Below, piece by piece: positions 1-21,992 of a stretch of 64,000 bases of DNA (position 1 is the first letter of the stretch; every line of letters begins with the position of its first letter). The DNA comes from Anaerolineales bacterium (GTDB lineage: Bacteria; Chloroflexota; Anaerolineae; Anaerolineales; Villigracilaceae). A program made the position numbers and the translations under genes. Below the pieces are notes generated by a model. It was not told where the DNA came from. It did no database searches and saw only the letters and a program-made list of their open reading frames with translations. The DNA lies in NCBI GenBank assembly GCA_014379595.1, contig JACMLM010000011.1:29062-93061 (forward strand). The letters are read 5' to 3'.

Positions 1-1
1 G

Positions 2-430
2 GTATTATCTGCGGCCATGGATCTAAAAACATTTAAGGGAAAAAATGGATTAGCAGTCACGCCTGATACAACCATCGAATCGCTCAAAGAAAAGGACCTC
101 TTCGCGATCATTCTCCCCGGCGGCTGGGCACCCGATAAATTGAGAAGATATGACGTGGTGAAAAATATTGTCCGCGAGATGGATGCGGCGAATAAGATCG
201 TTGGGATCATCTGCCACGGCGGGTCCATTGCTGTCTCAGCTGGCATCATCAAAAAAGGTCAACGCGTTACTGGGTCAGTTGGAATTAAAGATGATATGGT
301 AAACGTTGGTGGTGTCTGGGCGGATGAAGCTGCTTTTCGAGAGGGCAATCAGGTTTGGGGGCGGGTCGTGGCGGATATTCCAGATTTCAATCGTGAATTA
401 GTGAAGGCTTTAGTCGAAGGCTTGTCCTGA
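2..430 (+). CDS. DJ-1/PfpI family protein, 5' end truncated by window edge
   Basis: Frame is open from nt 2 (track ORF 17..430). LPGGWAP and nucleophile-elbow IICHGG motifs and the overall layout match PfpI-type class I glutamine-amidotransferase-like proteins. Roughly 35 N-terminal residues are missing. Confidence 0.8.
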   Translation, partial: VLSAAMDLKTFKGKNGLAVTPDTTIESLKEKDLFAIILPGGWAPDKLRRYDVVKNIVREMDAANKIVGIICHGGSIAVSAGIIKKGQRVTGSVGIKDDMVNVGGVWADEAAFREGNQVWGRVVADIPDFNRELVKALVEGLS

Positions 431-471
431 GTTTCATCGAAGGGATAAAAATTAATGCTTCATCTTTAACT

Positions 472-505
472 AAAAAGGTTCGACGTATGAACGTCGAACC
501 TTTTT
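472..505. terminator. Bidirectional intrinsic terminator between convergent pfpI-like gene and ABC ATPase gene
   Basis: AAAAA-GGTTCGACG-tatgaa-CGTCGAACC-TTTTT: perfect 9-bp stem flanked by an A-run and a T-run. Confidence 0.7.
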
Positions 506-519
506 AAATTTTTTATCTA

Positions 520-1581
520 TCATTCATCCAGAACTAATACAGCTTCTTTTGAACAAGTCACTTTTTCTATAGAGCCAATATGGGGCAATTCAAGAAATGG
601 ATTGTTGAAAGTATCCATATTGAATTTCGTATTGCCGATCGTGATTTGAATACGGACAACCGAACCAAGGAAAGTTATATTTTCAATAGTTGCATCCACT
701 ACATTAGCTTTCTTTTGTTCAGACGCAAAGCTAAAACGTTCAGGGCGAATGGCAACCCGTACCTTATCACCCTTTTTCCTGCTTTTCAAATCAGTAGCTG
801 TTGCAAATTGCACTCCATCTACAGTTAGCAATCCTTTCGCAGGGTCAACCACTTCACCGTTCGCATTATTCAGTGTGCCCACGAAATTGGCAGAAAACAC
901 AGTAGTTGGGAAGTTGTAAATTTCAAACGGAGTTCCCACCTGTTCGATCACGCCTGTATTCATAACAACGATACGGTCAGAGATGGATAGGGCTTCCTCT
1001 TGATCGTGCGTCACAAAGATGGCAGTGATTCCCAGGGATTTCTGAATGGCGCGAATCTCAGCACGCAACGACACGCGAATCTTGGCATCCAAAGCGGAAA
1101 GAGGCTCATCAAGCAAAAGCACCTGTGGACGGTTGGCAAGCGCGCGCGCCAATGAGACTCGCTGCTGTTGTCCGCCTGAAAGTTGATATGGATATTTGTC
1201 CGCATGCTTTTCGAGATTGATCAGGCTGATCATTTCACTCACGCGTTGTTTTACAACAGCGGCAGGTTCTTTACGGACAGTGAGCCCAAAACCAATGTTT
1301 TGGGCAACGGTCATATTTGGAAACAATGCATACGATTGAAAAATCATACCGACATTGCGCTGATTGGGAGCCTTATCTGTAATATCTGCACCATCCAGCA
1401 AAATTTTTCCAGAGGTGGGAATTTCAAACCCAGCCACCATACGTAAGGTCGTAGTCTTTCCACAGCCCGAAGGACCAAGAAAAGATACAAACTCACCCTT
1501 TTCAATATCAAGGTTGAAATTGTCAACGACAACAGTATCACCAAATTGTTTTGTTACGTTTGAGATGGATAGATAAGACAT
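520..1581 (-). CDS. ABC transporter ATP-binding protein (PotA/PhnT-like; putative AEP importer 1)
   Basis: Walker [10 protein letters not shown], signature LSGGQQQRV, Walker [12 protein letters not shown]. Last gene of an SBP-permease-permease-ATPase operon, paralogous to the set next to phnWX. Confidence 0.85.
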   Translation of the reverse strand: MSYLSISNVTKQFGDTVVVDNFNLDIEKGEFVSFLGPSGCGKTTTLRMVAGFEIPTSGKILLDGADITDKAPNQRNVGMIFQSYALFPNMTVAQNIGFGLTVRKEPAAVVKQRVSEMISLINLEKHADKYPYQLSGGQQQRVSLARALANRPQVLLLDEPLSALDAKIRVSLRAEIRAIQKSLGITAIFVTHDQEEALSISDRIVVMNTGVIEQVGTPFEIYNFPTTVFSANFVGTLNNANGEVVDPAKGLLTVDGVQFATATDLKSRKKGDKVRVAIRPERFSFASEQKKANVVDATIENITFLGSVVRIQITIGNTKFNMDTFNNPFLELPHIGSIEKVTCSKEAVLVLDE

Positions 1582-1602
1582 TGAAAATTCTCCGCCAATT
1601 CT

Positions 1603-2433
1603 TTAATGCGCGCCTGCGGCTTGACCTTGACCGCCAGTCACAAGTTGAATCATTCCCATTGCAAACCATGTAAGCAGGAAACTTACAAAAGAGAGCGCAG
1701 CAGGTTCATACGCGCGATGTTGTCCTAGTAAAAACAAATAAGGACCAAACGCATCCACGCCTAAAAATGAAGCCAGAGTTACTTCACCTACTACAATGGC
1801 GAAGGTCAACAATGCGCCGCTCAACAGTGCCGAGCGAATGTTCGGGAGTATGATCCGCGTAATGATGGTGAACCAGTTTGCACCGAGGCTTTGAGCCGCT
1901 TCTGTCAGAGTGCCAATATCTACAGTACGCATTCCCGTATCCACTGAACGATACATATAAGGCATGGCAAGCACCATATATCCAGCCACAATTAATATAT
2001 TGGTACCTACTTTGAAATTAGTCAGCGGCTGCATCAGTTGAATTTCTGTAAAAGGTACGTTAATAGGCGCGCTGTAGATTCGTATCAAGCCAAAGACAAG
2101 AATTATCGCTGGCACAACGAAAGGCATTAAGGTAATAAACTCTACAATGCGGCGCGCTTGAGGAAGGCGAAGGCGAATCCAGTATGCGGTTGGGACGATC
2201 AAGATAATACTTATCACAATGGTTGCAACCGCAAGCACATTTGAATAAATAAAGGTTTCCCAAAAATCCTTGTCTTCAAATGCACGTTGATATGCTTTAA
2301 AAGGAATTGCAGGGTCCCAACTTAAAGAAAATTCAAATGTAGCGAGCAAAGGCAATATAAAATATAAAGCGCCGAGAATAAACCAAATCCAGCTCCAAAA
2401 GGGAAATCTGCGAAGACGAGCCATGAAACTCAT
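1603..2433 (-). CDS. ABC transporter permease
   Basis: Multi-pass hydrophobic protein with an EAA-type loop (TEAAQSLGANWFTIITRIILPNI). 4-nt start/stop overlap with the upstream permease gene. Confidence 0.8.
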   Translation of the reverse strand: MSFMARLRRFPFWSWIWFILGALYFILPLLATFEFSLSWDPAIPFKAYQRAFEDKDFWETFIYSNVLAVATIVISIILIVPTAYWIRLRLPQARRIVEFITLMPFVVPAIILVFGLIRIYSAPINVPFTEIQLMQPLTNFKVGTNILIVAGYMVLAMPYMYRSVDTGMRTVDIGTLTEAAQSLGANWFTIITRIILPNIRSALLSGALLTFAIVVGEVTLASFLGVDAFGPYLFLLGQHRAYEPAALSFVSFLLTWFAMGMIQLVTGGQGQAAGAH

Positions 2434-3329
2434 TTAAGCCACCTTTCGGTTTTAGCCTGAAGCCATGAATATCCAGCTAATGAGATCGCCATGATGACCA
2501 CCATTCCAATTGCCATGGCATACCCGAGACCTGGATTGTATAAGACGTCGCCTCGAATCTGAGCTCCGATCTGAATCGTGACGATGCCGATTCTTCCGCC
2601 TGTGAGAGCGTACGCAGTAGCATACGCGCCAAACGCATTTCCAAATAATAAAATCATCGCTCCAAGAATTGAAGGCAATAAGACGGGCATTGCAACTTTT
2701 AACCAGTATTGGGTTGTGCTGGCTCCCAAATTTTCAGCAGCTTCACGCCACTCACGTTTGAGGCCATCCAAAGCAGGAGCCATGATAAGAACCATTAATG
2801 GGAACTGGAAATACATGTAAACCAAACTTAACCCTAAAAAGCTGTATAAATTAAAACCTGCCTGATAAATATTTATATTAAGATAATCTCTTAAGATATG
2901 GGTAATAAATCCCTGACGACCGAGTGTTGCAACGAATGCAAAAGCTAAAGGAACACCTGCAAAATTAGAGGCAACACCAGAGAAGGTGATCAAAATAGAA
3001 CGAAGAGGTTTGGGCAATCCACCTACTGTTACTGAGTATGCAAGTAAAAATCCTAAAATGCCCCCACCGAGTGCAGTGACTGCACTGATCTGAATACTCA
3101 ATTTATAAGCCTCGACAATAAATGGCTCTGAAAATAATTGAATAATATTATTGAATGTAAAGTTACCATTTATATCTGTGAAACTCGCTGTAAACAAGCG
3201 CAAGGAGGGAAGAAATAGAAAAAGAATTGCAAAGAGCAAAAACGGGGCAATACCAAGCCAGACTTTCCAATTGGTTGGGGTGGCAATATTTTTTTTAAGA
3301 TTAACGGTGGTCTGTGTCATAGCCTTCAT
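2430..3329 (-). CDS. ABC transporter permease
   Basis: Multi-pass membrane protein with an EAA-type loop (REAAENLGASTTQYWLKVAMPVLLP), in operon with the SBP and ATPase genes. Confidence 0.8.
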   Translation of the reverse strand: MKAMTQTTVNLKKNIATPTNWKVWLGIAPFLLFAILFLFLPSLRLFTASFTDINGNFTFNNIIQLFSEPFIVEAYKLSIQISAVTALGGGILGFLLAYSVTVGGLPKPLRSILITFSGVASNFAGVPLAFAFVATLGRQGFITHILRDYLNINIYQAGFNLYSFLGLSLVYMYFQFPLMVLIMAPALDGLKREWREAAENLGASTTQYWLKVAMPVLLPSILGAMILLFGNAFGAYATAYALTGGRIGIVTIQIGAQIRGDVLYNPGLGYAMAIGMVVIMAISLAGYSWLQAKTERWLK

Positions 3330-3351
3330 ATCCTCAGAACCAGTCTAGTTG

Positions 3352-3384
3352 TAGTGAGACCCCGCAAATTGCGGGGTCTCACTA
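3352..3384 (-). terminator. Intercistronic stem-loop between SBP and permease genes (attenuator / mRNA stabiliser)
   Basis: TAGTGAGACCCCGC-aaatt-GCGGGGTCTCACTA: perfect 14-bp GC-rich stem directly after the SBP stop codon. No clear U-tract. Confidence 0.5.
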
Positions 3385-3404
3385 TCCTACATAAAACTTA
3401 TTAC

Positions 3405-4604
3405 TTAGGGTGCGGCTTGAACATCTGCACCAACCGCTGAATCCCAGTTGGTGGTGATTAATTCTTTTGCTGTATTGAGTTGGTCAAGAGTTGGGAATAC
3501 TGCGCCGGAGACATCAGGCAATTTGTCGAGAAGCTCCTGAGGAATAACGCCGCGGTCGCGGAGGTCGGCCTCACGAATTGGGTGGCAGTAGCCTTCCATC
3601 CAAAGAAGCTGTCCTTCGTCTGAATAAAGGAATTCCATCCAGAGTTTGGCGGCGTTTGGATGTGGAGCATATGCGCTGATGGCCTGAACATAGATGCCAG
3701 CGAAACGTCCTGTGGCAGGGATCACAACTTCAGCAGTTGGGTTACCTTCAAAGGAGTCAACAGCGGCAAGAGCGTTATAGTCCCAGGTAACGCGAACTGG
3801 AATTTCACCTGTGGCAACCAAGCCATTATTCGCAATCAATGGGATGAGGTTACCAGCTGAATTCAATTCAGCAAAGAAATCAAGGCCGGCCTGGGCATCC
3901 TCTAATGAACCACCATTGGCAAGTGCTGCAGCATGGACGGCCTGGATGGCCTGGCTCGAAGCGCGGGGATCGCCAGACAAGGCAACCTGACCAGCATATT
4001 TGGGATCAAGCAAATCAGCCCAATCTTGTGGAACATCAGGTTGAACGGAGGTATTCACGAGGAATGCCATTACGCCGTAGTAATCACCATACCAATAACC
4101 ATCGGCATCCTTAGCATCATCGGGGATCGTATCCCAAGTGGAAACCTTATAAGGCTGGATCAAACCTTCATCTTTGGAGGAAGGTCCGAATGCAAGTCCT
4201 ACATCAATTACATCAGGAGCCTGAGGGCCGGTATTGTCCTTATTGGCTTTGATGGCTTCGATTTCGTCAGCAGAACCAGCATCAGGATTTAATTCATTGA
4301 CTTCAATATTGGGATACTTGGCTTTGAAGGCTTCAATCACGCCACCATAGTTACACCAATCTGGGGGTAAAGCAATTGTGGTGAGCATACCTTCAGCTTC
4401 TGCGGCGGCTACAAGATCAGCCAACGGGTCAGCAGCTGGGGCTTCAGTAGCAGCAGGTGCTTCGGTGGCAGCTGGGGCCTCCGTAGCGGCAGGCGCATCA
4501 GTGGCAGCAGGTGCTTCGGTAGCAGCTGGACCGCATGCAGATAACATTGTAGCGGCGATTACGAGCAGAGCGAGCAAATAATAAACGAACTTAGTTTGAC
4601 GCAT
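3405..4604 (-). CDS. ABC transporter periplasmic/extracellular solute-binding lipoprotein (PotD/PhnS-like)
   Basis: Signal peptide with lipobox LSAC-G, then a PAATEA repeat linker, then a PotD-like SBP body. About 50-60% similar by eye to the SBP at 12733..13878. Confidence 0.85.
   Translation of the reverse strand: MRQTKFVYYLLALLVIAATMLSACGPAATEAPAATDAPAATEAPAATEAPAATEAPAADPLADLVAAAEAEGMLTTIALPPDWCNYGGVIEAFKAKYPNIEVNELNPDAGSADEIEAIKANKDNTGPQAPDVIDVGLAFGPSSKDEGLIQPYKVSTWDTIPDDAKDADGYWYGDYYGVMAFLVNTSVQPDVPQDWADLLDPKYAGQVALSGDPRASSQAIQAVHAAALANGGSLEDAQAGLDFFAELNSAGNLIPLIANNGLVATGEIPVRVTWDYNALAAVDSFEGNPTAEVVIPATGRFAGIYVQAISAYAPHPNAAKLWMEFLYSDEGQLLWMEGYCHPIREADLRDRGVIPQELLDKLPDVSGAVFPTLDQLNTAKELITTNWDSAVGADVQAAP
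4428..4529 (-). repeat. In-frame 18-nt tandem repeat (about 5.6 units) encoding the (PAATEA)n linker of SBP 1
   Basis: Protein residues 26-59 read PAATEA PAATDA PAATEA PAATEA PAATEA PAAD. The DNA units differ mainly at synonymous positions. Confidence 0.9.
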
Positions 4605-4685
4605 TTTTCTCTATCTCCTTTATGGTTTTGTGTTGATTGGACGAACAGAACAATATACACATCTTCCCTGCACACCTCCAATCCA

Positions 4686-4701
4686 TTAACAAATCGTTAA
4701 C
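4686..4701. promoter_or_regulatory. Candidate operator upstream of ABC importer 1 (TTAACaaatcGTTAAC)
   Basis: Inverted TTAAC/GTTAA arms 82-97 nt upstream of the SBP 1 start. The core AAnCGTTAAC recurs in inverted orientation 72-83 nt upstream of SBP 2 (13950..13961). Confidence 0.25.
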
Positions 4702-4751
4702 ATTGTAGCATTATCAATATTCAAAGTCAAACATAGAAAAACACGCAAGCC

Positions 4752-4947
4752 GAATCTTAACTGGTCATTCAGTGAGCTTTCACCCACAATGCGCTACGAG
4801 TTTTTCGGAATCAAACATCACTCACGTAAACATCGGTATTGTTTGGGTGAATGAACCTATTTGTCGCCAGGAGAATCAGATTTGAGAGGAGGTTGTTACG
4901 GATATTTCTGATTTCAATCGAGAGTTTCTGAAGGCTTTAGCCGAATA
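4752..4947 (+). pseudogene. Degenerate DJ-1/PfpI gene remnant (3' half)
   Basis: Hand alignment is colinear with nt ~225-418 of the resident pfpI-like gene. It has an in-frame TGA, and the ICHGG region is destroyed. The tail still reads VVTDISDFNREFLKALAE-stop versus the resident VVADIPDFNRELVKALVEGLS-stop. Confidence 0.75.
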
Positions 4948-5032
4948 AGATTTATTAATCATTTGGTTTTATCCTAAATAAGAAAAATCCCGCAGACTGC
5001 CATCAAAAACTTTACTACCCTGCAATTACGGT

Positions 5033-6937
5033 TTAGTGATCTAGCACATGGGCCAGGCGCAACTTACGGAGTTTGGACCGTTTCTTGGTTTGATGCTCCT
5101 GCATCCTCCGCAAAATATCATCCAAAACCCGCACTGCGCTGACCACGTAAGGTCCCTTGTTGAGCATGACACATTCAGCACGGCGCCCCATCGCCGCGTC
5201 TGTAATCTCGGCGCGCGACGGCATGCCCTCTTGGGCGAGGGTCTCTAGAACCTGAGTGGCCCAAATCACGGGAACATGCGCGGCTTCACAAACCCAGAGA
5301 ATCTCTTCCTGAACTTCCGCCAGGCGCTCGAATCCGCATTCGACAGCCAGATCACCGCGAGCGATCATCACACCGCAAGATGGGGCTCGCATAGCTGTAA
5401 GCAACATGTCGGGTAAATTCTCAAAGCCGCGCCGCGTTTCAATTTTCAGCACGATGGCAGGTTGGCGACCACCCAAACTCAACAAGTGCTGCTGGAGCGA
5501 CTCTACATCCTGTGCGGTGTTGGCGAAGGACAATTCGACAACATCGGCATGCTTAACCACAAAGGACAGATCCTCGATGTCTTTGGCGGTCATTGCAGCG
5601 AGGCGTAGGTTACTCTCAGGAAGATTAATACCCTTATCGGCTCGCAGTTTTACGGGCTTCAGATGCTCCTGGGTAATTTTTATGAAAACTTGCGTTTGCT
5701 CCAACTTTTCAACAACGCCGCCAATTTTGCCGTCGTCGAACCAGATCGACTCCCCTGCCCGCACGTCATCGAAGACCTGCGGAATTGAGCAACCAATTAC
5801 TGCTGGAGTAAGAGTTTTTCCGTTCTTATCGTAAGTTGCAGGACGACCTGGCTTGAGGTTACGAGTCAGAATGAGCATGTCACCCTGCTGTAAGGAGATG
5901 ACGTTTTCAAGCGGTGGCAACTCGCCGACGCGGCCATCCTGGTCTTCTGGCTTGTCTATGTCACGCTCGCGATGCAGAATCATACCCGGAACAATGTAAG
6001 CAGTCTTGGTCGCCTCTACCAGGCAGCCGTGCTCAATTACATCAAGCACGTTAAAAGCCCGATTAGAGTCACGCGCATCTATGAATGTTATGCGATCCCC
6101 GATTCGTAGGAGGGCCAGCCACGCCGATGGCATAAAGAGGCAAGTACTCACTGAAGAAGGCGGAGGCTGAGGAGAAGTATCTGAAGTCAACCAGACTCGT
6201 GCAGGCTCTGTGACTCGTCCGTACACATCTCGACGGGGCTTGATTCGGAGCACTGCTGGCCCCGGCTCAAGCGGACCCGTGCGCAGTTTTGGTCCACCGA
6301 GATCCATGACGACTCGGCAGGATTTTCCCAATGACCGCTCAGCCTTCCTCAAATGCTTGATCATCCGCAGCCAAGTAGCAGCATCATCATGAGCGCAATT
6401 AATGCGCATGCAATCCATACCTTGCTTGAGTAGATTATGAACGAGAGAGTAATCATCGGCAGCTTCGCTCGGCATGGTGACCATAATCCGCACTGTGCGC
6501 CCTTTTGGTGCTGTTCCCAACAAGACATCAGTGTGTTCGGCGAGTAACTGCTCACCGTTAGCGAAATCAACAATTGCAAATTCCTGTAAAGGCGGCTGCC
6601 AGGCGCGATTCAGCAGACCGTGTAGAACTACAAGAACGGCATCTACCGTGGCTAAGACATGCGACTCTGCCCGCCCGAGTGAGGAAAGCCCAAGAGTAGC
6701 CAACTGGATCTGCAAAGGGCGCAGGTCGTGGCGACGCAAAGCAAGGTAATGTAGGAGATTCCTGGCACTTGCCTGGTAATTCAAGTGAACATCTTCAATA
6801 CGTAGCTGGGACTTGGCTGAACCAGTAATCATATCCGTCCGGATTGCCTTAAGCTTTCTCAAGACAGTCATGATATGCTCCTTCCCTGGATAAGCACCAT
6901 CGGTGGAATTTTTCGTTTTCACAAATATATTCTCCAA
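5033..6937 (-). CDS. Atypical pyruvate kinase family protein (N-terminal extension, no C-terminal allosteric domain)
   Basis: PK A-domain motifs are present: MDCMRINCAHDD, DLGGPKLRTG, KIETRRG, MIARGDLAVE, ATQVLETL..PSRAEITD. There are about 150 extra N-terminal residues and an enlarged B-domain region. Confidence 0.65.
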   Translation of the reverse strand: MENIFVKTKNSTDGAYPGKEHIMTVLRKLKAIRTDMITGSAKSQLRIEDVHLNYQASARNLLHYLALRRHDLRPLQIQLATLGLSSLGRAESHVLATVDAVLVVLHGLLNRAWQPPLQEFAIVDFANGEQLLAEHTDVLLGTAPKGRTVRIMVTMPSEAADDYSLVHNLLKQGMDCMRINCAHDDAATWLRMIKHLRKAERSLGKSCRVVMDLGGPKLRTGPLEPGPAVLRIKPRRDVYGRVTEPARVWLTSDTSPQPPPSSVSTCLFMPSAWLALLRIGDRITFIDARDSNRAFNVLDVIEHGCLVEATKTAYIVPGMILHRERDIDKPEDQDGRVGELPPLENVISLQQGDMLILTRNLKPGRPATYDKNGKTLTPAVIGCSIPQVFDDVRAGESIWFDDGKIGGVVEKLEQTQVFIKITQEHLKPVKLRADKGINLPESNLRLAAMTAKDIEDLSFVVKHADVVELSFANTAQDVESLQQHLLSLGGRQPAIVLKIETRRGFENLPDMLLTAMRAPSCGVMIARGDLAVECGFERLAEVQEEILWVCEAAHVPVIWATQVLETLAQEGMPSRAEITDAAMGRRAECVMLNKGPYVVSAVRVLDDILRRMQEHQTKKRSKLRKLRLAHVLDH

Positions 6938-6965
6938 GAACTGAACGGCGTGCGCTTAACCTGCG

Positions 6966-7040
6966 CAAACCGTAATTGAAGTCGTGGCGGATATTTCCGC
7001 TTTTAATCGCAAGTTGATGAAAGCTTTAATCGAAGGATAA
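6966..7040 (+). pseudogene. DJ-1/PfpI 3'-end relic
   Basis: Nt 6981-7040 read VVADISAFNRKLMKALIEG-stop, about 80% identical by eye to resident pfpI nt 366-424. Similarity weakens upstream. The relic overlaps, in antisense, the last codons of the 7026..7841 gene. Confidence 0.7.
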
Positions 7041-7841
7041 AGGCTTCTGTTTCATCGTTTCAGGAATGGGAACATCCAACAATTTAAGGATGGTGGGTGC
7101 GATCTGCAAATGTGAGCTTGTTTCACCCGTATCGCCTCCACCCTGACCGTTGGGATTAATCACAAAAAATGGCACAGTGCGCTGTTCGGGAGTTGTGCCG
7201 CCATGTGCGCCATCTTTATTAATTCCATGATCGCCTGTGACAAAAATAGTATAGCCTAGCTCTTTCCATTCCATAATAAGTGGTGCAAGTTTGGAGTCTT
7301 GATAAACAGCGTGGTTGCGATATTCTTTTGAATCAGAACCGTATGTTTCACCATGATAATCCATGCCCATTGGATGAAGCAAAAGATAATCAGGTGAAAA
7401 CTTTCTTACAAGTGAAGTTGCAATATTGAAGAGTTCAATATCTGGATATTCATCTTGAGTATAAAAACGCCCATGTTGAATATTCAAAGCATTATTATCA
7501 ACCTCTTTATCATCAATAGGATTGTAGGGTGCACGATTGTACAACTCAGAATACCAGGAATAAGCAGCAGCGGCAGTCACCTTACCAGCTCGTGCAACAG
7601 ATTGAAAAATATTTGGCATCTTTGAAAGCCTGATAATCGAATTTGCAACAATGCTATGTTCACTGGATGGTACGCCCGTATGAATAGTTTCGTACATCGG
7701 GCGGGACATGCTAGGCAATTCGCCCACAATTTTATACAGGCTTGCCAGTTTATTTTCCACAAGATGTCCCAGAAAACCCATATTATCTTTTGCCACATCG
7801 TAGCGCAAACCGTCTGAAAGAACGAGAATTACCTTGGTCAC
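7026..7841 (-). CDS. Alkaline phosphatase superfamily protein (type I phosphodiesterase / nucleotide pyrophosphatase-like)
   Basis: N-terminal VLSDGLRYD metal/nucleophile region and GDHG..GAHGG motif are typical of the NPP/AlkP fold. Sits immediately downstream of phnX in the same operon. Confidence 0.6.
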   Translation of the reverse strand: MTKVILVLSDGLRYDVAKDNMGFLGHLVENKLASLYKIVGELPSMSRPMYETIHTGVPSSEHSIVANSIIRLSKMPNIFQSVARAGKVTAAAAYSWYSELYNRAPYNPIDDKEVDNNALNIQHGRFYTQDEYPDIELFNIATSLVRKFSPDYLLLHPMGMDYHGETYGSDSKEYRNHAVYQDSKLAPLIMEWKELGYTIFVTGDHGINKDGAHGGTTPEQRTVPFFVINPNGQGGGDTGETSSHLQIAPTILKLLDVPIPETMKQKPLSFD

Positions 7842-7843
7842 AT

Positions 7844-8674
7844 TTATGGGCCCTCACCATGTGCCAAGCGAAATTCAATATCATCCAATACATCTGGCAG
7901 ATCCCAAATGCCGTCAATTACATAATGGGCACCAGCCTGATAAAGTTGAGTTTCAATTTTATTGATGGCATGATCTCTATCCTCTGGCGAAAGCAAGTTA
8001 ACTTCTGATTCATTCATTCCAAGCAGGTTTCCTGTCAATGACAAGCCCACAGTCCACATCCCTGCATTTAGTCCTTCTTCAATATCCGGTAAGGTATCAC
8101 CAACTTTCACCATGGCTTGCATGGGAAAGACACCCAGTTGAATCGCGTTCTCATAACACATCCACGGATAGGGCCGCCCAGCGGGGACTTCATCAGGGCA
8201 AACTGTACAATCGGGTTCGTAGCCATTTTCTTTGGCTTTCGGCGCAAGCACTTCCATCATTGAGCGAAGATAACCTGTGGTGGTTCCAATTTTCACCTCT
8301 CGCTCACGCAACTCTTTTACTACATCTAAAAGTCCATGGATCGGTTCTGCAAATTCCTTCAGAACAGATAACTGCAGCGGCACAAAACTATTGAATAGAC
8401 TGTCAATATCATCTTCTGAAGCAGGCTTGCCATGAGCCGTCTTCCATGCTTCGGCTACCTGGGGGCGCGCAAGAATGGTTCGAAGATGATCTTTCTTCAT
8501 TAACCCCATTCCAGAGCGGGCATCTTCCACAGCTATTTTTACGTTTTGATTCTCAAACAGGCGCAAAAAAACAGCCGTTGGTGCGAAAGAGCCATAATCA
8601 ACAGCTGTCCCTGCCCAATCCAAAATGACAGCTTTCAATGGTCCACGATAAGAGCGTTGAAAAACAAAATCCAT
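7844..8674 (-). CDS. phnX: Phosphonoacetaldehyde hydrolase (phosphonatase)
   Basis: HAD motif I in the PhnX-specific form ILDWAGTAVDYG. Long colinear similarity to Bacillus cereus PhnX as I recall it (GTTTGY, VPAGRPYPWMCY, KVGDT, NAGMWTVG). Confidence 0.93.
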   Translation of the reverse strand: MDFVFQRSYRGPLKAVILDWAGTAVDYGSFAPTAVFLRLFENQNVKIAVEDARSGMGLMKKDHLRTILARPQVAEAWKTAHGKPASEDDIDSLFNSFVPLQLSVLKEFAEPIHGLLDVVKELREREVKIGTTTGYLRSMMEVLAPKAKENGYEPDCTVCPDEVPAGRPYPWMCYENAIQLGVFPMQAMVKVGDTLPDIEEGLNAGMWTVGLSLTGNLLGMNESEVNLLSPEDRDHAINKIETQLYQAGAHYVIDGIWDLPDVLDDIEFRLAHGEGP

Positions 8675-8677
8675 TTT

Positions 8678-9838
8678 TTATTCCTCATTCTTTTCAGAAA
8701 TATGTATGTTCATTTCAATCAATGTTTTGGCAATTGCAGACCCTAGCGCTTTTACATCTGCAAGCCCAAGTCGCCCGATATGACCAACGCGAAAACAATC
8801 TGCACGAGTCAATTTGCCGGGATAGATCACATGACCCTTATCGCTTAAGCGTTCATAAAATTGCTGAAAATTAAAATTGGGATGCTCGGGATAATAAAAG
8901 GATGTGATGATATATCCCTGATCTTCGGGCTTAAGATAAGCCTGAAATCCCATTTCTTGCATCGCCGAGAGTGTCGCTTCATAGTTTTTTTTATAACGAG
9001 CGCCGCGAGCCACGACTCCGCCCTCCTGCTCCAATTCGATCAACGCCTGATGAAAAGCCAGAATCGAATGTGTGGGTGGAGTAAAACGGAATTGTCCGTC
9101 ACCTTCGAGGCCTTCCCATTGCGCAAACAGATCAAGGCTGAGAGTGCGAGCCAAGCCTTTTGCTGCAAGGAGCGCCTCTTTATGGGCAAGTACAAAAGAA
9201 AAGCCCGGAACGCCTTCAATATTTTTATTGGACGAAGAAATTAAAAAATCAATTCCACAGGCTTTCATATCAACAGGGTAAGCGCCAAAACTGCTCATTG
9301 CATCTACAATGTATACGCACTTATGTGCCTTGACAATCTTTCCATACTCTTCAATCGGATTGATGATGCCTGTTGTTGTTTCGCAATGAATTGCGGCAAC
9401 ATGCGTGATGGCCGAATCAGATTGAAGTGCCTGCTCAAGCACTTGAATATCTGGCTGGGTATTTTCAGCAAAAGTTAATTCAGTTGCAGGAATGTGATGG
9501 ATATTGGCAATTTTTAATAATCGTTTTCCGTACGCGCCATTAATTAGAATAAGTAATTTTCCATCTGAAGGAATCACAGAGGAAAGCGTTGCTTCAATTC
9601 CAAAAGTACCGCTGCCCTGCATCAAAATAGAAGTATAGTCATCAGAGTCACTGCCCAGTGTAACTAATCTCTGACGCACATCTTTTACAATGTTGATAAA
9701 CTCAGCATCACGCGAGCCAAGGTCACGAAGCATAGCCTGCTTGACAGTTCGGCTGGTGGTCAATGGACCGGGTGTAAATAACGCCTTATCTTTCCATGAG
9801 GATAATTGACTTGAGAGTACATCCAATCCTAAAAACAT
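8678..9838 (-). CDS. phnW: 2-aminoethylphosphonate--pyruvate transaminase
   Basis: Class V aminotransferase. [10 protein letters not shown]-terminus and PLP-lysine region [15 protein letters not shown] are typical of PhnW. Directly upstream of phnX. Confidence 0.9.
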
Positions 9839-9849
9839 AATTTCACCTC

Positions 9850-10902
9850 TTATATCAACCAGCAGGCATCCGCATCGAAGTTAACCTGAAATATATCTCC
9901 CACTGCTGGCATTTTTAATTTCCGTTCATTGAACATATCCATGGATATTAATTGACCCTCAACATCAATGCGGACGCGAATGATGGAACCGAGATAGGTG
10001 ATCGAATCCACTTTACCAGTCAAGTTATTCGCGCCTTCCAGATAACCTGGGTTTAACTCCTCAGGACGAATTGCTAGTCGAACTGCGTGTGCGCCATCTG
10101 CACGATTTAAGGCGCGGCTGGTTCTCACAGGCTGCTGCCCAACTTTTACCAAGCCTTCTGGTGGATTAATAACATCAACTGGCAATAAGTTAATCTGCCC
10201 GACAAATTTAGCAACAAACTCAGTTGCAGGATATGTATAAATTTCAGATGGTGTTCCAACTTGTTCCATTCGTCCCTGACTCATCACCACCACACGGTCC
10301 GAAAGAGAAAGTGCCTCTTCTTGGTCATGGGTTACATAAATCGTAGTGATACCCAACTGCTGTTGAATACGACGAATCTCTTGTCGCAGTTCAACACGGA
10401 TTTTGGCATCCAACGCGGAGAGAGGCTCATCGAGTAATAGTATTTGTGGGCGAATTGCCAGAGCACGCACTAAAGCAACTCTTTGTTGCTGGCCGCCTGA
10501 GAGTTGATATGGATAGCGCTCGCGAAAGTTTTCCAAATGGATCAGATCGAGCATTTCGTCTACACGTTTGTTAATCTCTGTTTTGGATTTCCCAACCACC
10601 TTTAAACCATAACCGATGTTGTCAGCAATAGTCATATTCGGGAATAAAGCATAAGACTGAAAAACCATTCCAACGTTACGTTTATTAGGCGGTACATAGG
10701 TCAAATCCTGATCGGCGATTGTGATCTTTCCTGAGGTAGGCAATTCAAATCCCGCGATCATTCTCAAGGTTGTCGTTTTTCCGCATCCGCTTGGGCCGAG
10801 GAAAGACACAAACTCGCCCTGTTCAGCACTTAAGTTGAAATCATCCACAGCGGGCATATCTGCAAAGGTTTTATTGACGTGAGTAAGTTTAAGGAAAGAC
10901 AT
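9850..10902 (-). CDS. ABC transporter ATP-binding protein (putative AEP importer 2)
   Basis: [29 protein letters not shown]. Clear paralog of 520..1581. Confidence 0.85.
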
Positions 10903-10929
10903 GAATTTACCTCGGGTATTGTATTTTTT

Positions 10930-11724
10930 CTAACGCCCAGTGAGTTGTTGACTGGTATCGCCGCGGCTAACCAACTGTATGAGGCCAAGACACACCCAGG
11001 TGAGTGCGAAACTCATGATGGTTAAAGCAGCAGGTTCAAAGGCCTTTGTTGTTCCGATGGAAGTCATATAAGGTCCGAGCGCCGGGCGAAATAAAAAGTC
11101 AGCGAGGATCAGTTCACCTATCACTGTAGCGAAGGTGATCAATGCCCCGCTCAGAAGCGCAATTCGCAGATTAGGTAAGATGACATTGACTAGGGTCTGA
11201 AACCAGTTTCCGCCAAGGCTTTGAGAGGCCTCAGTAAGTGTGCGCACGTCAATCGAACGCATACCTACATCAATGGCGCGGAACATGTAAGGCATGGAGA
11301 GAACCACGTAGCCGCCTATCATCAGAAAATCTGTCCCCGTTGCTGTTAAGGTCAACCGGAAAGGCGGGCGTCCAAATGTGCGGATCAAACCAAAGACATA
11401 GACGATCACCGGGATGATAAAAGGCAGGATGGTAATGATTTCGACCACAGGTCGTAGTTTTGGGAGTTTTAAATAGATCCAATAAGTGGTCGGCAGGAAA
11501 ATCAGGATGCTAATGATCACTGTAATAATGCCCATCGTGGCGGAGTATAGAAAACTTTCCACAAAGTTGGGGTCAGCCAAGACAATTTGATAGGCCCGCA
11601 AACTAATTATCCCCTTTTGCATACGGAGGGAAAAGTCAAGAGTGCCATACATTGGCACAAAGAAATAAAGTAGTGCGAGCGTGCCCCAAAACAAGCCCCA
11701 GAAGTTAAAGCGAGGAGTTTTCAT
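10930..11724 (-). CDS. ABC transporter permease
   Basis: The track ORF runs to 12009, but its first 95 codons overlap the upstream permease gene in another frame. The ATG at 11724 (MKTPRFNFWGLF...) gives an ATGA overlap with the upstream stop and matches the paralog at 1603..2433. Confidence 0.8.
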   Translation of the reverse strand: MKTPRFNFWGLFWGTLALLYFFVPMYGTLDFSLRMQKGIISLRAYQIVLADPNFVESFLYSATMGIITVIISILIFLPTTYWIYLKLPKLRPVVEIITILPFIIPVIVYVFGLIRTFGRPPFRLTLTATGTDFLMIGGYVVLSMPYMFRAIDVGMRSIDVRTLTEASQSLGGNWFQTLVNVILPNLRIALLSGALITFATVIGELILADFLFRPALGPYMTSIGTTKAFEPAALTIMSFALTWVCLGLIQLVSRGDTSQQLTGR

Positions 11725-12692
11725 GATTTCAACCACCGCGCTGTGCGACGCTGTAAAATTGTGTATCCCGTTATCGTAATACTCATAATGACAACCATCC
11801 CCAGTGCAAGTGCATATCCTAAATTCGGATTTCCTAGTACATCCCCGCGAATTTGTTGGCCAATTAATATAGTTACCAAATAAATACTTCCGCCGGTTAA
11901 TGCCTGGGCAGTTGCGTATGCGCCAAAAGCACTGCCAAATAACAAAAGCCCTGCACCAAGAATGGATGGCCACAGGACGGGAAAAGCGACATATCGCCAA
12001 TACTGCCACGAGCTGGCTCCCAAATTATCTGAGGCTTCGCGCCAGTCTCGCTTGAGACCTTCCAATGCAGGTGTGATAATTAAAACCATCAAGGGAAACT
12101 CAAAATAGGTATAGGCCAACGTGAGTCCAAGAACACCATAGAGAGTGAAACCGTTGTCATAGATATCAAGCGGGCAGGATTGGACACCTGCCGCGTTTGA
12201 AAAACAAATATTCTTGAGGATTGCCGTGATCAGTCCGGTGCGGCCTATCGTAGCGATAAAGGCAAAGGCCAATGGCACACCTCCAAAATTGGCGGCCAGC
12301 CCCGAGAACGTCATCAAGATATTACGCATCCATTTGGGGGCCTTGCCAATCGTAATGGCATAGGCAACGAAGAAACCAAAAACACTGCCAACCAGCGAGG
12401 TAATGACACTCACCTGCAAACTGACTGAATAGGCTTTGAGAATCGCCGGGTCTTTTAAACCGATAATATTGTCAAACGTAAAATTCCCGTTCAAGTCTCT
12501 AAATGCGCCAATAAATAAATTCATGGAAGGCAGAATCAAAAAAACAATGATAAAGATAAAAAATGGAATAACGCCGATCCAATTTCCAAGGACGTCTAAA
12601 ATTTTGGCTCTTCTTGAAACCTGCTGAGTTTGAGAATTTTCCATTGCTGCCCTTTCAACTGAGAATGGCGTGGCCCAGTTTACCTGAGCCAC
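11721..12692 (-). CDS. ABC transporter permease
   Basis: Paralog of 2430..3329 with an EAA loop REASDNLGASSWQYWRYVAFPVLWP. The start could be the internal Met (MENSQ...). Confidence 0.8.
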   Translation of the reverse strand: MAQVNWATPFSVERAAMENSQTQQVSRRAKILDVLGNWIGVIPFFIFIIVFLILPSMNLFIGAFRDLNGNFTFDNIIGLKDPAILKAYSVSLQVSVITSLVGSVFGFFVAYAITIGKAPKWMRNILMTFSGLAANFGGVPLAFAFIATIGRTGLITAILKNICFSNAAGVQSCPLDIYDNGFTLYGVLGLTLAYTYFEFPLMVLIITPALEGLKRDWREASDNLGASSWQYWRYVAFPVLWPSILGAGLLLFGSAFGAYATAQALTGGSIYLVTILIGQQIRGDVLGNPNLGYALALGMVVIMSITITGYTILQRRTARWLKS

Positions 12693-12732
12693 GCCACAAA
12701 TCAGAAAATCTTATTGAATGAACCCAATACTC

Positions 12733-13878
12733 TTACTTGATGTCAAGACCAACAACCGAGTCCCATTGTTCCTTGATGGCTTCACGGGCGGCACTGAGCT
12801 GGTCACCACTTGGCACGGTCGAGGCAATAAGCAGGGCAGGATCAGGAAGCTTCGCCTTCAGTTCATCAGAAAGCACGTTGCGGGCATTCAAATCTGCGAG
12901 GCGGGCGGGAGCGCAATATCCCTCGACCCATATTGCCTGACCTTCGTCAGAATAAAGGAATTCTTCCCATAAACGGGCAGCTGCCGGGTGCGGAGCATAG
13001 GCGCTGATGGCCTGATAGTAATAGCCACCCCAGTTTACGTCGGAAGGATATATGATCTCAATGTTCGGGTTGCCGGCAAAACTGTCTTTGTTGGCATAGG
13101 CGTTCCAACTCCACTGGAAGGTAATAGGGGTTTCACCCTTACCAATTACGCCGGAGTCAGCAATCAATGGCAGAAGGATACCCTTTTCATTCAATTGCTT
13201 AAAGAATTCCAAACCAGGTGTAATGTCATCGAGGCTGCCACCATTGGCGAGAGAGGCTGCATACACGGACTGGGCAGCCTGATTGGAGGCGCGAGGATCA
13301 CCAGCAAGTGCAACCTGGCCTTTGTACTTCTCATCGTTCAAGTCAGCATAGCTGGTGGGAATGTCACTCACAACATCGGTATTGACTTCAAGAACCATCA
13401 CACCACTGTAATCCACATAATAGTATCCATCGGGATCATTTGTACCTTCAATTGTGTCCCAAGTTTCAACTTTATACGGAGTGATCAAGCCTTGTTCTTT
13501 GGCGAGAGGACCATAAGCAGGACCAATATCAATTACATCAGGAGCCTGTGGACCTTTGTTCTCTTTGTTGTCAATAATGGCCTGAATTTCATCAGCAGAA
13601 CCACCATCAGGGTTGAGGGAATTAACCTTAATGCCGTATTTCGCAGCGAAGGTATCCATCATTTCGCCATAGTTGCACCAATCAACAGGCAAAGTAATGA
13701 CGTTAAGCTCACCTTCAGCCTTGGCAGCTGCGATTAAAGCATCCATGCCGCCACCATCTGCGGCAGATTTTACAACTGACCAGTCACTAGCTGCAGGTGA
13801 AGCAGGCGTACCACAAGCGGCAAGCACGAGACTTGTTGTGATCAGAACGAACAAAATAGTACGAACAATCTTTGACAT
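12733..13878 (-). CDS. ABC transporter solute-binding lipoprotein (PotD/PhnS-like)
   Basis: Signal peptide with lipobox LAAC-G and a PotD-like body. First gene of the operon that ends with phnW-phnX and the NPP-like gene. Confidence 0.85.
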   Translation of the reverse strand: MSKIVRTILFVLITTSLVLAACGTPASPAASDWSVVKSAADGGGMDALIAAAKAEGELNVITLPVDWCNYGEMMDTFAAKYGIKVNSLNPDGGSADEIQAIIDNKENKGPQAPDVIDIGPAYGPLAKEQGLITPYKVETWDTIEGTNDPDGYYYVDYSGVMVLEVNTDVVSDIPTSYADLNDEKYKGQVALAGDPRASNQAAQSVYAASLANGGSLDDITPGLEFFKQLNEKGILLPLIADSGVIGKGETPITFQWSWNAYANKDSFAGNPNIEIIYPSDVNWGGYYYQAISAYAPHPAAARLWEEFLYSDEGQAIWVEGYCAPARLADLNARNVLSDELKAKLPDPALLIASTVPSGDQLSAAREAIKEQWDSVVGLDIK

Positions 13879-13949
13879 TTCTTTTCTCCTTTTTGAATTT
13901 TATACTTCCGCATAATAGCAAACTGGCATTAATGTCAACAAAAGGATTA

Positions 13950-13961
13950 GTTAACGTTTAA
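13950..13961. promoter_or_regulatory. Candidate operator upstream of ABC importer 2 (GTTAACGTTTAA)
   Basis: Shares the CGTTAAC core with 4686..4701 and sits at a similar distance from the SBP start codon. Confidence 0.2.
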
Positions 13962-14144
13962 TTAAATTATCAATTTACATTTCGAATAAAACTACAGAAA
14001 CTATTATATAGATCCATCTGAAGAATAATTTAACCAATCTATAACATCACCTTAACCCTCTTTCTTCCTTTTTGTAGAATAATGCAAGTAGATATTGATT
14101 GTATTTATCAAATTTAAAATTAAATGTTGATGGTTTTTATTCAA

Positions 14145-14183
14145 GAATGAAATGTTTAAATTCAACATTTAAATATTTCATTC
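14145..14183. promoter_or_regulatory. 17-bp inverted repeat in AT-rich intergenic region (candidate operator)
   Basis: GAATGAAATGTTTAAAT-tcaac-ATTTAAATATTTCATTC: 16 of 17 arm positions are complementary. Confidence 0.3.
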
Positions 14184-14209
14184 CATAAGGAAAAATAATT
14201 ATTCCAAAT

Positions 14210-14245
14210 AGAAAATACAGATTTCAATCTGGAATAATTATTTAA
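14210..14245 (+). other. Possible fourth, strongly AT-drifted PfpI 3'-end trace
   Basis: Shares the exact 12-mer CAGATTTCAATC with resident pfpI (nt 380-391). About 22 of 33 aligned positions match by hand. Confidence 0.3.
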
Positions 14246-14318
14246 CATTTTAAACAACTAGAGATGAGATAGTAAAACAAATTCACTATTAAAAATTTCA
14301 TTTCTACAAGGAGAAATA

Positions 14319-14636
14319 ATGGCAAAATCATTCCCCGAACTACTCGCCTCAGTCCGTCAGATGCTGGTCGGACTGGAAGCAAACGCAGAGGACGTCGCTG
14401 TACGCGGCGCGACCCCTGCTTTCACAAAGAACGGTCAAAGCCTGCTAGACAGTGTGCATGCCCTTGAAGCTGAGCAAGACTCTCTAAAAGCCGCACTAAA
14501 AACCAAGACTGCTGCCTTGGATATTACGATTGCTCAGTTAAAAACGTGGCAATCCGAAGCCAATAGCGCCGTCAAACTAACCTATCGTGATCAGCAGGAA
14601 AAATGGGTCGAGTTCGGTATTAAAGCCAAGAAATAA
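14319..14636 (+). CDS. Hypothetical small alpha-helical (coiled-coil-like) protein
   Basis: 105-aa ORF with a good SD (AAGGAGAAATAATG), followed by a strong terminator. I recognise no family. Confidence 0.5.
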   Translation: MAKSFPELLASVRQMLVGLEANAEDVAVRGATPAFTKNGQSLLDSVHALEAEQDSLKAALKTKTAALDITIAQLKTWQSEANSAVKLTYRDQQEKWVEFGIKAKK

Positions 14637-14663
14637 CTTTGATTTAGTAAATGTCCACCTATT

Positions 14664-14710
14664 AAAACCACAGATACCCTTAAAACATCGAGGGTATCTG
14701 TGGTTTTTTT
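14664..14710. terminator. Bidirectional intrinsic terminator
   Basis: AAAA-CCACAGATACCCT-taaaacatcg-AGGGTATCTGTGG-TTTTTTT: 13-bp perfect stem between convergent genes. Confidence 0.8.
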
Positions 14711-14745
14711 GTATTGTGCAGTTTCTAAGCTATCAACACATGAAA

Positions 14746-16182
14746 CTAAGCAATAGGCAAAAGTTCACCTGCAACCATGCCCGGGAATTCAGCGCGAAGC
14801 TTTTCTTCAATTTCGGGAGAGAGCAAAGGAGTTGTATTACTTGCCATGATATCTTTCACTCGCTTCATTGCTTTTGTTTGAATATCAGTTGAACCTTTCT
14901 TTACCCAAACTGTTCGCGCATCGCGGTCTGCCAACTTCGTCATCACAGCCTCGGTCTTCATACGGGCGATGGTATGTTTGGCAACAATAAACGAACCGCC
15001 TGGACCAACTTGTTTGATTAAATCAAGTGCCAGGTCTTCTTCATTAAATGAGATACCATGCTTGACACGCTTCATCATCTGCGCCACTTCATCATCGATC
15101 ACGGCTTTTGCAAAGTCAAAGGTTGTCAACGCATCGATCAAACCGCCAATGTTGAACATATCCATGCCGCCTACTGTACCGCCCATTGCAGACATGCCTG
15201 TTTCATATCCTGCTTGCGCATCATTTAATTTTGAATTGGTCAGCCCAACATAACCTCCGCACGGCACGTTGTAAAAACGCGCCAGTTGAGCAAAAGCCAT
15301 ATGTAACATTCCGCATTCGATCGCGCCTGAAGTGTATGCACCAGAACGCATATCCGCCACAGTAGCAAGAGTGGCGTAGATCGTGGGTGTACCTTCCTTC
15401 ACCATTTGCATTAATGTTGCGGTTGCAAGAAATTCAGCATTGCCTTGTGCGAGAGTCCCAGCCATAGACATAGGTGAAGTGAGTCCTGCATTCGGCACAA
15501 TGGTTGGGTAAACAGGCAAACCCTCACTCGCAAAATAAATCACATTCTCAGCTGAAAGTTTATCCATAGACAGCGGTGAAACAGTAGGGCAATAATGATG
15601 TGTGAGGAATGGATGTTCCTTGTACGCTTCCTCCCCGCCTGCAACAATATACGCCATTTGCATCATGGCAAGTGTGTCTTTGTGATCTGTAGTGGTGACA
15701 CGGATCGGTTTGAGACAATACTTGAGAGCCGGATACAACCTCGAGATTGTGAATTGATCCGCTGGTGCGTCTTCCGCCAAAGTGGAAATGGAAAACATGT
15801 CATAACCAGGCAATTCGTTGATGAGATGCGCGATCTGAGCGATATCACCTGACTCAGCGCGTCTTTCCACGCCTGTAACTGGGTCAATAATATTTGGAGC
15901 AGAACTCGCCGTTACAATGACCGGGCTATCCCGTGGAATCGTTTTATCAAATTTCGGGTCACGCGCGTGAAATGTAAAAGACGGCGCATACATCTTGCGA
16001 TATTTTTCGATCACCGCAGGCGGAAATTTAACACGCTCATCTTCTACAGAGCAGCCATGCTGTGCGAAAATTTCACGTGCAGGCTCATAACGAACCTTTA
16101 GACCAACCTCTTCAAGAATTTCAAGCGCAGCATCATGGATTCGTTGCACTTGTTCCTGGGTAAGAAGTTCTGCAAATGACAT
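14746..16182 (-). CDS. Trimethylamine methyltransferase (MttB) superfamily protein, non-pyrrolysine type (MtgB-like quaternary-amine methyltransferase)
   Basis: 478 aa with an MttB-family N-terminus (QVQRIHDAALEILEEVGLKV) and typical length. The ORF is uninterrupted, with no in-frame TAG. Confidence 0.8.
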   Translation of the reverse strand: MSFAELLTQEQVQRIHDAALEILEEVGLKVRYEPAREIFAQHGCSVEDERVKFPPAVIEKYRKMYAPSFTFHARDPKFDKTIPRDSPVIVTASSAPNIIDPVTGVERRAESGDIAQIAHLINELPGYDMFSISTLAEDAPADQFTISRLYPALKYCLKPIRVTTTDHKDTLAMMQMAYIVAGGEEAYKEHPFLTHHYCPTVSPLSMDKLSAENVIYFASEGLPVYPTIVPNAGLTSPMSMAGTLAQGNAEFLATATLMQMVKEGTPTIYATLATVADMRSGAYTSGAIECGMLHMAFAQLARFYNVPCGGYVGLTNSKLNDAQAGYETGMSAMGGTVGGMDMFNIGGLIDALTTFDFAKAVIDDEVAQMMKRVKHGISFNEEDLALDLIKQVGPGGSFIVAKHTIARMKTEAVMTKLADRDARTVWVKKGSTDIQTKAMKRVKDIMASNTTPLLSPEIEEKLRAEFPGMVAGELLPIA

Positions 16183-16243
16183 GGGTCACATCCTTTTTTA
16201 ATTTGTTAATGCGAGGAGCGATCTCCGCAACAATGACGATCCT

Positions 16244-19784: not shown

Positions 19785-19818
19785 TTAAAATACCTGTTTC
19801 ATCATTAATTAATATCTA

Positions 19819-21014: not shown

Positions 21015-21067
21015 GTGAAGGATTATATAAGTATTTGAAGGAATTTGCAAGTTTTTGACATTTTGCT

Positions 21068-21073
21068 TATAAT
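21068..21073 (+). promoter_or_regulatory. Candidate -10 box of a leaderless transcript for the CBS gene
   Basis: TATAAT lies exactly 6 nt before the ATG at 21080, and there is no SD. The same geometry occurs at 35093. Confidence 0.3.
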
Positions 21074-21079
21074 GGCGTT

Positions 21080-21977: not shown

Positions 21978-21992
21978 CAGGAGCAAAGATTC

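Follow-up and report, generated by a model that had tools for sequence, protein, structure and literature searches.

In staphylococci, staphylococcal cassette chromosome (SCC) elements sit at the 3' end of rlmH (orfX), and genomic islands also occupy the 3' ends of tRNA genes and protein genes; such systems rely on dedicated recombinases (Ccr, tyrosine integrases), leave short near-identical repeats at a fixed position and show recurrent occupancy across strains. Phosphorus-acquisition islands vary in content in marine and freshwater bacteria. One-sided homologous insertion leaving displaced 3' ends has been described for the effector-immunity arrays of type VI secretion systems (T6SS) and for Rhs arrays (Kirchberger et al. 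2017, PMC5361080), and homology-facilitated illegitimate recombination (HFIR) was proposed for Rhs, contact-dependent inhibition (CDI) and T6SS arrays (PMC5361080; Jackson et al. 2009 cited there). Here, we analyzed a window of 64,000 nucleotides from an Anaerolineales bacterium (contig JACMLM010000011.1), in which the 3' end of the gene pfpI is found again, in decayed form, at two places downstream, here named relic 1 and relic 2. With moderate confidence, we interpret these two extra tails as scars of additive recombination through pfpI homology, at the border between pfpI and a variable phosphorus-scavenging locus. The locus is a known kind of recombination scar, and gives evidence of neither a new mobile element nor a new mechanism.

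The resident pfpI gene (DJ-1/PfpI family; Pfam PF01965, E 4e-26) lies at 2-430 on the plus strand and is cut by the window start; the complete gene, read on an identical Logan contig (L001), encodes 176 aa. Extra tails were evaluated with a DNA profile made from 53 related pfpI genes, with blastn on the whole window, and with Smith-Waterman alignments to window positions 1-430 compared to shuffles that preserve dinucleotides. Relic 1 (4787-4946, plus strand, after the first importer operon) is a 5'-truncated, decayed pfpI piece corresponding to gene nt 361-520 (profile E 1e-18, envelope 4767-4951), with an alignment score of 91 against 19.3 +/- 2.2 in the shuffles (z 33) and a blastn identity of 75% over 120 nt (E 4e-18). 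Relic 2 (6981-7040, plus strand, after a pyruvate kinase gene) is a pfpI tail corresponding to gene nt 466-524 (profile aligned to 6981-7039, E 1e-8), scoring 57 against 17.2 +/- 2.5 (z 16), with 80% identity over 56 nt (E 7e-9). Both relics thus exceed their shuffled controls, in the local alignment that an initial annotation of this DNA had proposed. That annotation had listed three extra tails, of which relics 1 and 2 stand by shuffles, blastn and profile. The left end that it gave for relic 1, 4752, has to be moved, as homology is unsupported beyond about 4767; the in-frame stop that it reported in relic 1 is present, being a W>TGA change at 4883-4885, and is accompanied by a 1-nt indel that shifts the frame. 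The third copy, described as an AT-drifted trace at 14210-14245 that keeps an exact 12-mer, is a chance match and not part of the feature: this 12-mer match (14218-14235, in the AT-rich region upstream of the second importer) scored 26 against a shuffle maximum of 30 (z 2.9) and equally on the reverse strand, had a blastn E of 1 and gave nothing with the profile, even with --max and E <= 10. No marker is therefore present at the right end of the supposed island. Apart from relics 1 and 2, the additional tail copies for which a search had been suggested were found nowhere in the 64 kb by blastn or by profile.

As the assembly is of metagenome type and the tail is conserved among co-occurring Anaerolineales, we considered that contigs of co-occurring relatives could have been chained at the conserved pfpI tail. 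Such an artefact is hardly credible. The tail copies in the window are only 73-80% identical to each other, and hence share no long k-mers; both relic junctions are reproduced at 100% identity by two Logan contigs of run SRR11670876 (window 1-5197 and 6402-11867), so that no mis-join is involved; and a chimeric join would not yield shortened, decayed fragments.

Functional pfpI tails are near-invariant (GRVVADIPDFNRELVKAL...) across about 50 species, and the relics depart from them at positions invariant in about 47-50 species. Over gene nt 361-520, the resident gene is changed at 0-2% of the family-invariant columns, compared to 15% in relic 2 (nt 466-524) and, in relic 1, 11% at nt 466-520, 34% at nt 413-465 and 46% at nt 361-412. 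Relic 2 shows P>S, D>A, E>K and V>M at invariant positions, and relic 1 carries, besides its stop and frameshift, many replacements that again include invariant positions. Both relics are decaying pseudogene pieces, and not the tails of functional diverged homologs that the initial annotation had seen in them; given this decay, the differences from the resident tail are no sign that they descend from such homologs. An origin of relic 1 in a distant PfpI subfamily was also rejected, its best match being the Anaerolineales clade. The step in the decay of relic 1 (34-46% vs 11%) coincides with the left end of relic 2 at nt 466; this unevenness could reflect constraint on the tail, gene conversion among the tails or a composite origin of relic 1.

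To place the relics we turned to the locus in relatives. A PfpI protein scan of species-representative genomes gave 80 loci, about 47 of them from Anaerolineales at 75-90% identity, including several Candidatus Villigracilis. Their conserved order is an M20 peptidase gene, pfpI (plus strand), a convergent gene for an NPP-type phosphodiesterase (NPP, minus strand), an ATP-binding cassette (ABC) importer (ATPase, two permeases, binding protein) and PiT, continued by a DUF47/PhoU-like gene, an mttB-like gene, a PfkB kinase gene and a DAO-GcvT gene. About 60 related Anaerolineales loci have in common its main elements, pfpI, convergent NPP, the importer and mttB. NPP directly follows pfpI in 34 loci, the two 3' ends overlapping by 15 nt (e.g. 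L013), and in 12 loci pfpI is followed by the importer without an intact NPP between them. Among seven of these 12 that were inspected, four (L003, L006, L033 and L048) retain antisense remnants of the NPP 3' end just 3' of pfpI, and their different lengths indicate repeated, independent deletions of NPP in the clade. Single genes are also split in two frames in pfpI of L063 (10001-10523) and in NPP of L021 (6079-6892), by frameshifts or by sequencing errors in metagenome-assembled genomes.

In the window, the block on the minus strand at 7026-13878 consists of NPP (7026-7841), phnX (7844-8674), phnW (8678-9838) and a second importer, ABC2 (9850-13878), and is called here the 2-aminoethylphosphonate (AEP) block; Pfam and NCBIfam confirmed the calls of pfpI, both importers, the pyruvate kinase, NPP, phnX and phnW. 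Further relatives, obtained by a metagenome scan with PhnX and by look-ups of the closest NPP proteins, showed this block, or its NPP end, beside an intact pfpI. L167 reads M20 peptidase-pfpI><NPP-DAO-phnX-phnW-ABC2, L168 and L002 read pfpI><NPP, and L089 reads phnW-phnX-NPP><pfpI. L134, a more distant type III relative on a 101-kb contig, reads pfpI><NPP-DAO-phnX-phnW-ABC2-mttB-PfkB-DAO/GcvT with pfpI intact, so that the AEP block runs straight into mttB, without PiT and DUF47. The nearest relatives, L167, L168 and L002, share 90% identity in PfpI, 92% in the ABC2 ATPase, 96% in one permease, 85-86% in NPP and 83-84% in PhnW and PhnX, and L090, which has no pfpI on its contig, ranks alongside them (ABC2 at 92-96%, NPP at 85-86%). 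Since these nearest relatives have the block beside intact pfpI, NPP-phnX-phnW-ABC2 is native context and not cargo. Window homology to the AEP-type loci has a sharp left edge at 6981 (pfpI nt 466) and extends through the overlap into NPP, which places relic 2 as the old pfpI tail in its original position; consistent with this, the final 15 nt of relic 2 (7026-7040) double as the terminal codons and the stop of NPP on the minus strand, the same 15-nt overlap as in L013, L134, L167 and L168.

The initial annotation had proposed that up to three successive integrations built the AEP island, each leaving the arrangement of gene, cargo and displaced tail. This arrangement holds for the first importer and the pyruvate kinase blocks and fails for NPP-phnX-phnW-ABC2, an ancestral neighbour that abuts intact pfpI in L167, L168/L002, L089 and L134; at most two events took place, and the AEP pathway was not assembled by them. 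The comparison shows two additions between the pfpI body and the old tail, a foreign pyruvate kinase gene and a second version of the same locus. In this comparison, pyruvate kinase, phnX, phnW and a 105-aa open reading frame (ORF) of the window were absent near pfpI in the species-representative loci, where a second partial pfpI was likewise absent (tblastn E <= 1; profile). Among the 84 sources with a profile hit, partial copies occurred only in the window and in its own contig L001; there were none in L167 and L168, no relics in the small gaps and insertions of L028, L035, L047 and L043, and no relic, first importer or pyruvate kinase on the contigs L002, L167, L168 and L090. Intact tandem pfpI paralogs, which had been named beforehand as a sign against successive integrations, were found in no relative locus. 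Variation in content at the locus was seen among relatives: downstream of the anchor gene, conserved at 75-90% across about 47 relatives, at least four arrangements occur and the importer alleles are mosaic.

The second version of the locus comprises, as far as it can be traced, an EGLS-class pfpI 3' end, a terminator, and an importer operon (ABC1) cut 4 nt upstream of its -35 box. ABC1 occupies 520-4604 on the minus strand (ATPase 520-1581, permeases 1603-2433 and 2430-3329, binding protein 3405-4604; Pfam). It is the normal pfpI neighbour in 46 relatives and adjoins pfpI in the 12 relatives without intact NPP; its four proteins have best relatives at 88-90% aa identity in which the operon likewise adjoins pfpI, and its GC content at third codon positions (GC3) matches the backbone. 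Upstream, the leader and promoter (4605-4734, minus strand; -35 at 4730-4725, -10 at 4707-4702) match about 25 relatives at 77-95% by blastn, the promoter scan giving 10/12 matches with an extended TG. Homology to relatives stops at 4733/4734 (junction J2), which is the end of the conserved leader. A bidirectional terminator hairpin (471-506; a 16-bp stem, then a T run) separates pfpI from the ABC1 ATPase gene.

The resident PfpI ends in '...ALVEGLS-stop', a minority 'EGLS' class that results from an 18-nt insertion found in 5/53 relatives (L010, L012, L031, L032 and L059), whereas the standard 'EG-stop' end, without the insertion, is found in relic 1, in relic 2 and in the nearest relatives. 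Members of this minority class (window 413-448 and the same five loci) end in EGLS or EGLP before the stop, and the insertion removes the overlap with NPP. Past the resident stop, blastn found 18 nt (431-448, plus strand) matching only the EGLS-class loci L059, L010, L012 and L032; the counterpart in L010, L059 and L012 is the antisense of the last NPP codons, and L032 has no NPP. We tentatively propose that 431-448 is probably a remnant of a deleted NPP gene. A standard-class downstream profile gave no NPP remnant after the resident stop or after relic 1. Two of these loci, L010 and L059, also rank among the best matches to ABC1. The tail class is at odds with the affinity of the rest of the gene, as the 5' 344 nt are closest to L002/L003 (82% nt identity) and the 5' part groups with standard-class relatives, L002 and L167 being nearest. 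A breakpoint scan placed the best switch near pfpI nt 414-468 (permutation p 0.006-0.07, with donor proxies chosen post hoc). The resident gene thus probably carries a replacement tail, as the initial annotation had supposed, judging from the EGLS class compared to the standard end in relic 2 and the nearest relatives.

These observations can be accommodated by a simple series of steps. For each addition, incoming DNA carrying a stretch of pfpI would have been joined via pfpI homology, either by one homologous and one illegitimate join or by a single crossover of a circularised fragment, and the latter option would also make relic 1 composite. The illegitimate joins would be those at 4734/4787, 4947/5020 and 6981. 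The functional gene would take the incoming 3' end while the previous 3' end would be displaced downstream, and a dedicated recombinase would not be required. Because pfpI and NPP overlap by 15 nt, any insertion between them that keeps both genes must duplicate their shared end.

Could the extra tails have arisen locally, within this lineage? The stretch from pfpI to the importer would then have been duplicated in tandem, after which the surplus pfpI copies decayed and the duplicated cargo diverged or was replaced. Such a duplication would create a junction joining the promoter end of an importer to an internal pfpI position, as at 4734/4787, and the three tails share the minority states T492, T499 and T510, with the relics slightly nearer to the resident tail than the family average. 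However, ABC1 and ABC2 are only 49-60% identical in protein and each has orthologs at 88-96% elsewhere; no relative has tandem intact pfpI, the 18-nt insertion of the resident gene is missing from both relics, and the pyruvate kinase gene is foreign. We consider this explanation improbable.

Unlike ABC1 and the AEP block, a normal and an ancestral neighbour of pfpI, the pyruvate kinase (PK) gene is cargo of outside origin. PK (5033-6937, minus strand) encodes a long-form enzyme of 612 aa (NCBIfam NF011314, 831 bits vs a cut-off of 642). It is compositionally foreign (GC 0.525, GC3 z +2.3 vs backbone); its best homologs are 75-81% identical (top match P0002, 81%), the closest named ones, at 74-76%, being from Thiobacillus and other Proteobacteria, and nucleotide homology is confined to the ORF (5042-6928). 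The composition profile per block that the initial annotation had suggested thus singles out PK as foreign and shows ABC1 and the AEP block as backbone; the only other outlier in the locus is the ABC2 permease-2 gene (GC3 z +2.3).

Several points weigh against recombination through pfpI homology. No pfpI was found beside PK homologs in the contexts of P0002 (81%) and P0003 (77%), which makes the homology anchor a hypothetical one in the PK event; in these same contexts relic 1 was tried, and rejected, as a hitch-hiker with PK. An inverted repeat of 15 nt (CAATTACGGTTT), unique in the window and with p < 1/2000 for the flanks, brackets the PK ORF exactly; its left arm (5020-5034, CTGCAATTACGGTTT) and right arm (6967-6981, AAACCGTAATTGAAG), 14/15 complementary with 12 perfect, end with the right arm touching the first base of relic 2. 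Just outside it, a direct repeat of 57 nt, made of tail sequence, encloses PK (4889-4945 and 6978-7034, 75%), and our model predicts neither repeat. The 15-mer GTCGTGGCGGATATT of the resident tail recurs unchanged at the left edge of relic 2, an identity that a crossover core would also give. The model does not account for the stronger decay of relic 1 on the 5' side of nt 466, and the p-values of the breakpoint scan are optimistic because the donor proxies were picked after the tail similarity had been seen. Finally, the variable columns mark the relics as neither clearly local nor foreign (7/26 differences in each, family mean 10.5 +/- 3.1), the 54 nt compared being too few to separate nearness to the resident tail from nearness to other species.

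The inverted repeat around PK could mark the border of a cassette, be the scar of an inversion or have some other meaning. Pushed further, the repeats might mean that the pfpI 3' end is a hotspot of an unrecognised trans-acting system and PK a single-ORF cassette with a target duplication of ~57 nt, which we regard as very improbable; if true, it would amount to a recombinase-less gene-cassette mechanism shuffling nutrient-uptake modules in Anaerolineales. Because of all these unfitting points, a site-specific or cassette-like process retains some small probability.

The initial annotation had favoured site-specific integration, with elements targeting the pfpI 3' end by an integrase, bringing a replacement tail, and a recombinase that acted in trans or was lost. 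The order gene, cargo, tail, cargo, tail would follow from such events, as would a resident tail of another structural class than relic 2, the 15-nt identity GTCGTGGCGGATATT, and the flanking of PK by direct and inverted repeats. However, no tyrosine or serine recombinase, resolvase or transposase is present in the 64 kb, in agreement with what that annotation had itself remarked: Pfam found none among 50 ORFs, only DprA and topoisomerase I (ten island ORFs and 40 ORFs of at least 120 aa at 14.7-63.7 kb, in a window that opens within pfpI). The relics start at unequal pfpI positions by profile (nt ~361 in relic 1, nt 466 in relic 2), and relic 1 lacks the 15-mer (3 mismatches), so that no core is common to all three copies. 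ABC1, the ordinary pfpI neighbour in 46 relatives, arrives with a probable NPP remnant and its native promoter, and therefore looks like a homologous locus and not an element. Related loci, despite their variable content, hold no relic, and our literature search on pfpI as an integration site returned no relevant report. Dedicated integration is thus unsupported, and we judge it distinctly unlikely.

A single import would offer another way to assemble the locus. A composite fragment (pfpI 3' piece-PK-old tail/NPP-phnX-phnW-ABC2-105-aa hypothetical gene) would have entered a pfpI-ABC1-PiT-DUF47-mttB backbone, replacing PiT-DUF47, with the relics as passengers from the donor. Consistent with this, NPP-less relatives match the gene order of the window on either side, over pfpI-ABC1-leader to the left and from mttB onward to the right. 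The mttB-like gene (14746-16182, minus strand; Pfam PF06253), a conserved right flank syntenic in more than 35 relatives, is closest to NPP-less L006 along its whole length, at 86-95% over four protein quarters; and the window has neither PiT nor the DUF47/PhoU-like gene, which about 40 relatives carry between importer and mttB, nor any remnant of them in its intergenic regions. Against it, the nearest relatives by PfpI (90%) have pfpI><NPP and not pfpI-ABC1, and the resident tail class conflicts with the 5' affinity. Within mttB, no recombination switch was found and no change of affinity toward the junction. The AEP-type L134 also lacks PiT-DUF47, whose absence therefore needs no replacement event, and a tail-duplicating event in the donor would still be needed. 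Such an import is unlikely, and we retain additive recombination through pfpI homology as the best explanation.

Additional features of the locus were observed. In the promoter region of ABC1 (4675-4733, minus strand), ~60 nt of non-coding sequence are 90-95% conserved in about 25 species and contain two TTAACA repeats 11 nt apart (Pho-box-like) with the -35 and -10 boxes. In relatives, a palindrome ATTCAAAG-N-CTTTGAAT spans the ABC1 -35 box; the window lost its distal half at the junction, and the regulation of ABC1 may therefore differ. In the ABC1 binding protein, a lipoprotein-like signal is followed by an N-terminal linker of low complexity (~4424-4535, minus strand) with about five ATEAPA repeats. 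Among relatives (L015, L017, L041, L042 and others), importer alleles are mosaic, with the ATPase 82-88% identical to that of ABC1 and the permeases and binding protein 49-61%, which suggests that recombination may occur inside the operon among lineages. The listed ORF of ABC2 permease 2 (10930-12009) has a long N-terminal extension overlapping permease 1, and its true start is probably near 11700. A FAD-dependent oxidoreductase gene (DAO family) lies between phnX and NPP in L134 (10825-12045), L167 (3973-5193), L090 and L101, and is missing in the window and in L089. To the right, 13879-14745 holds a 440-nt AT-rich spacer and the 105-aa ORF, which has no family match (69% to one contig, L107). 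The flank at 14746-25509 encodes the MttB-like methyltransferase and a choline/ethanolamine kinase together with two DAO-GcvT fusions, a CBS protein and a DeoR regulator, a set that resembles a cluster for the catabolism of choline or quaternary amines.

In summary, the locus illustrates how a nutrient-scavenging region can grow, as versions exchanged among uncultured Chloroflexota were here stacked and not swapped. The stacking would bring together two AEP-type ABC importers, phosphonatase-pathway genes and PK under apparent Pho-type promoters. The displaced gene ends record the number of additions, and their order is inferred. A tail duplication forced by gene overlap can be mistaken for an attachment site, which calls for caution in island annotation.

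Compared to known systems, the locus is closest to the Rhs/CDI/T6SS arrays (PMC5361080), where a conserved upstream anchor is retained, modules recombine through the anchor without an integrase, and the old 3' end is pushed downstream as an orphan in the same orientation, repeats of the process giving serial fragments. In those arrays the anchor is a toxin gene whose C-terminus is polymorphic, whereas here it is a small housekeeping-type gene; the modules are operons for nutrient uptake, added in two events in one lineage, and no plausible role, for example in immunity or as a toxin reservoir, suggests itself for the displaced pieces. With SCC elements the locus shares insertion at a 3' end, a restored reading frame and tandem elements parted by repeated target ends, whereas a dedicated recombinase, near-identical repeats at a fixed position and recurrent occupancy were not found here. 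As in phosphorus islands, close relatives differ in their phosphonate and phosphate uptake genes at one chromosomal locus with conserved flanks; unlike in those islands, the variants come as alternative versions of one syntenic locus, exchanged among Anaerolineales, two of which are stacked in one genome.

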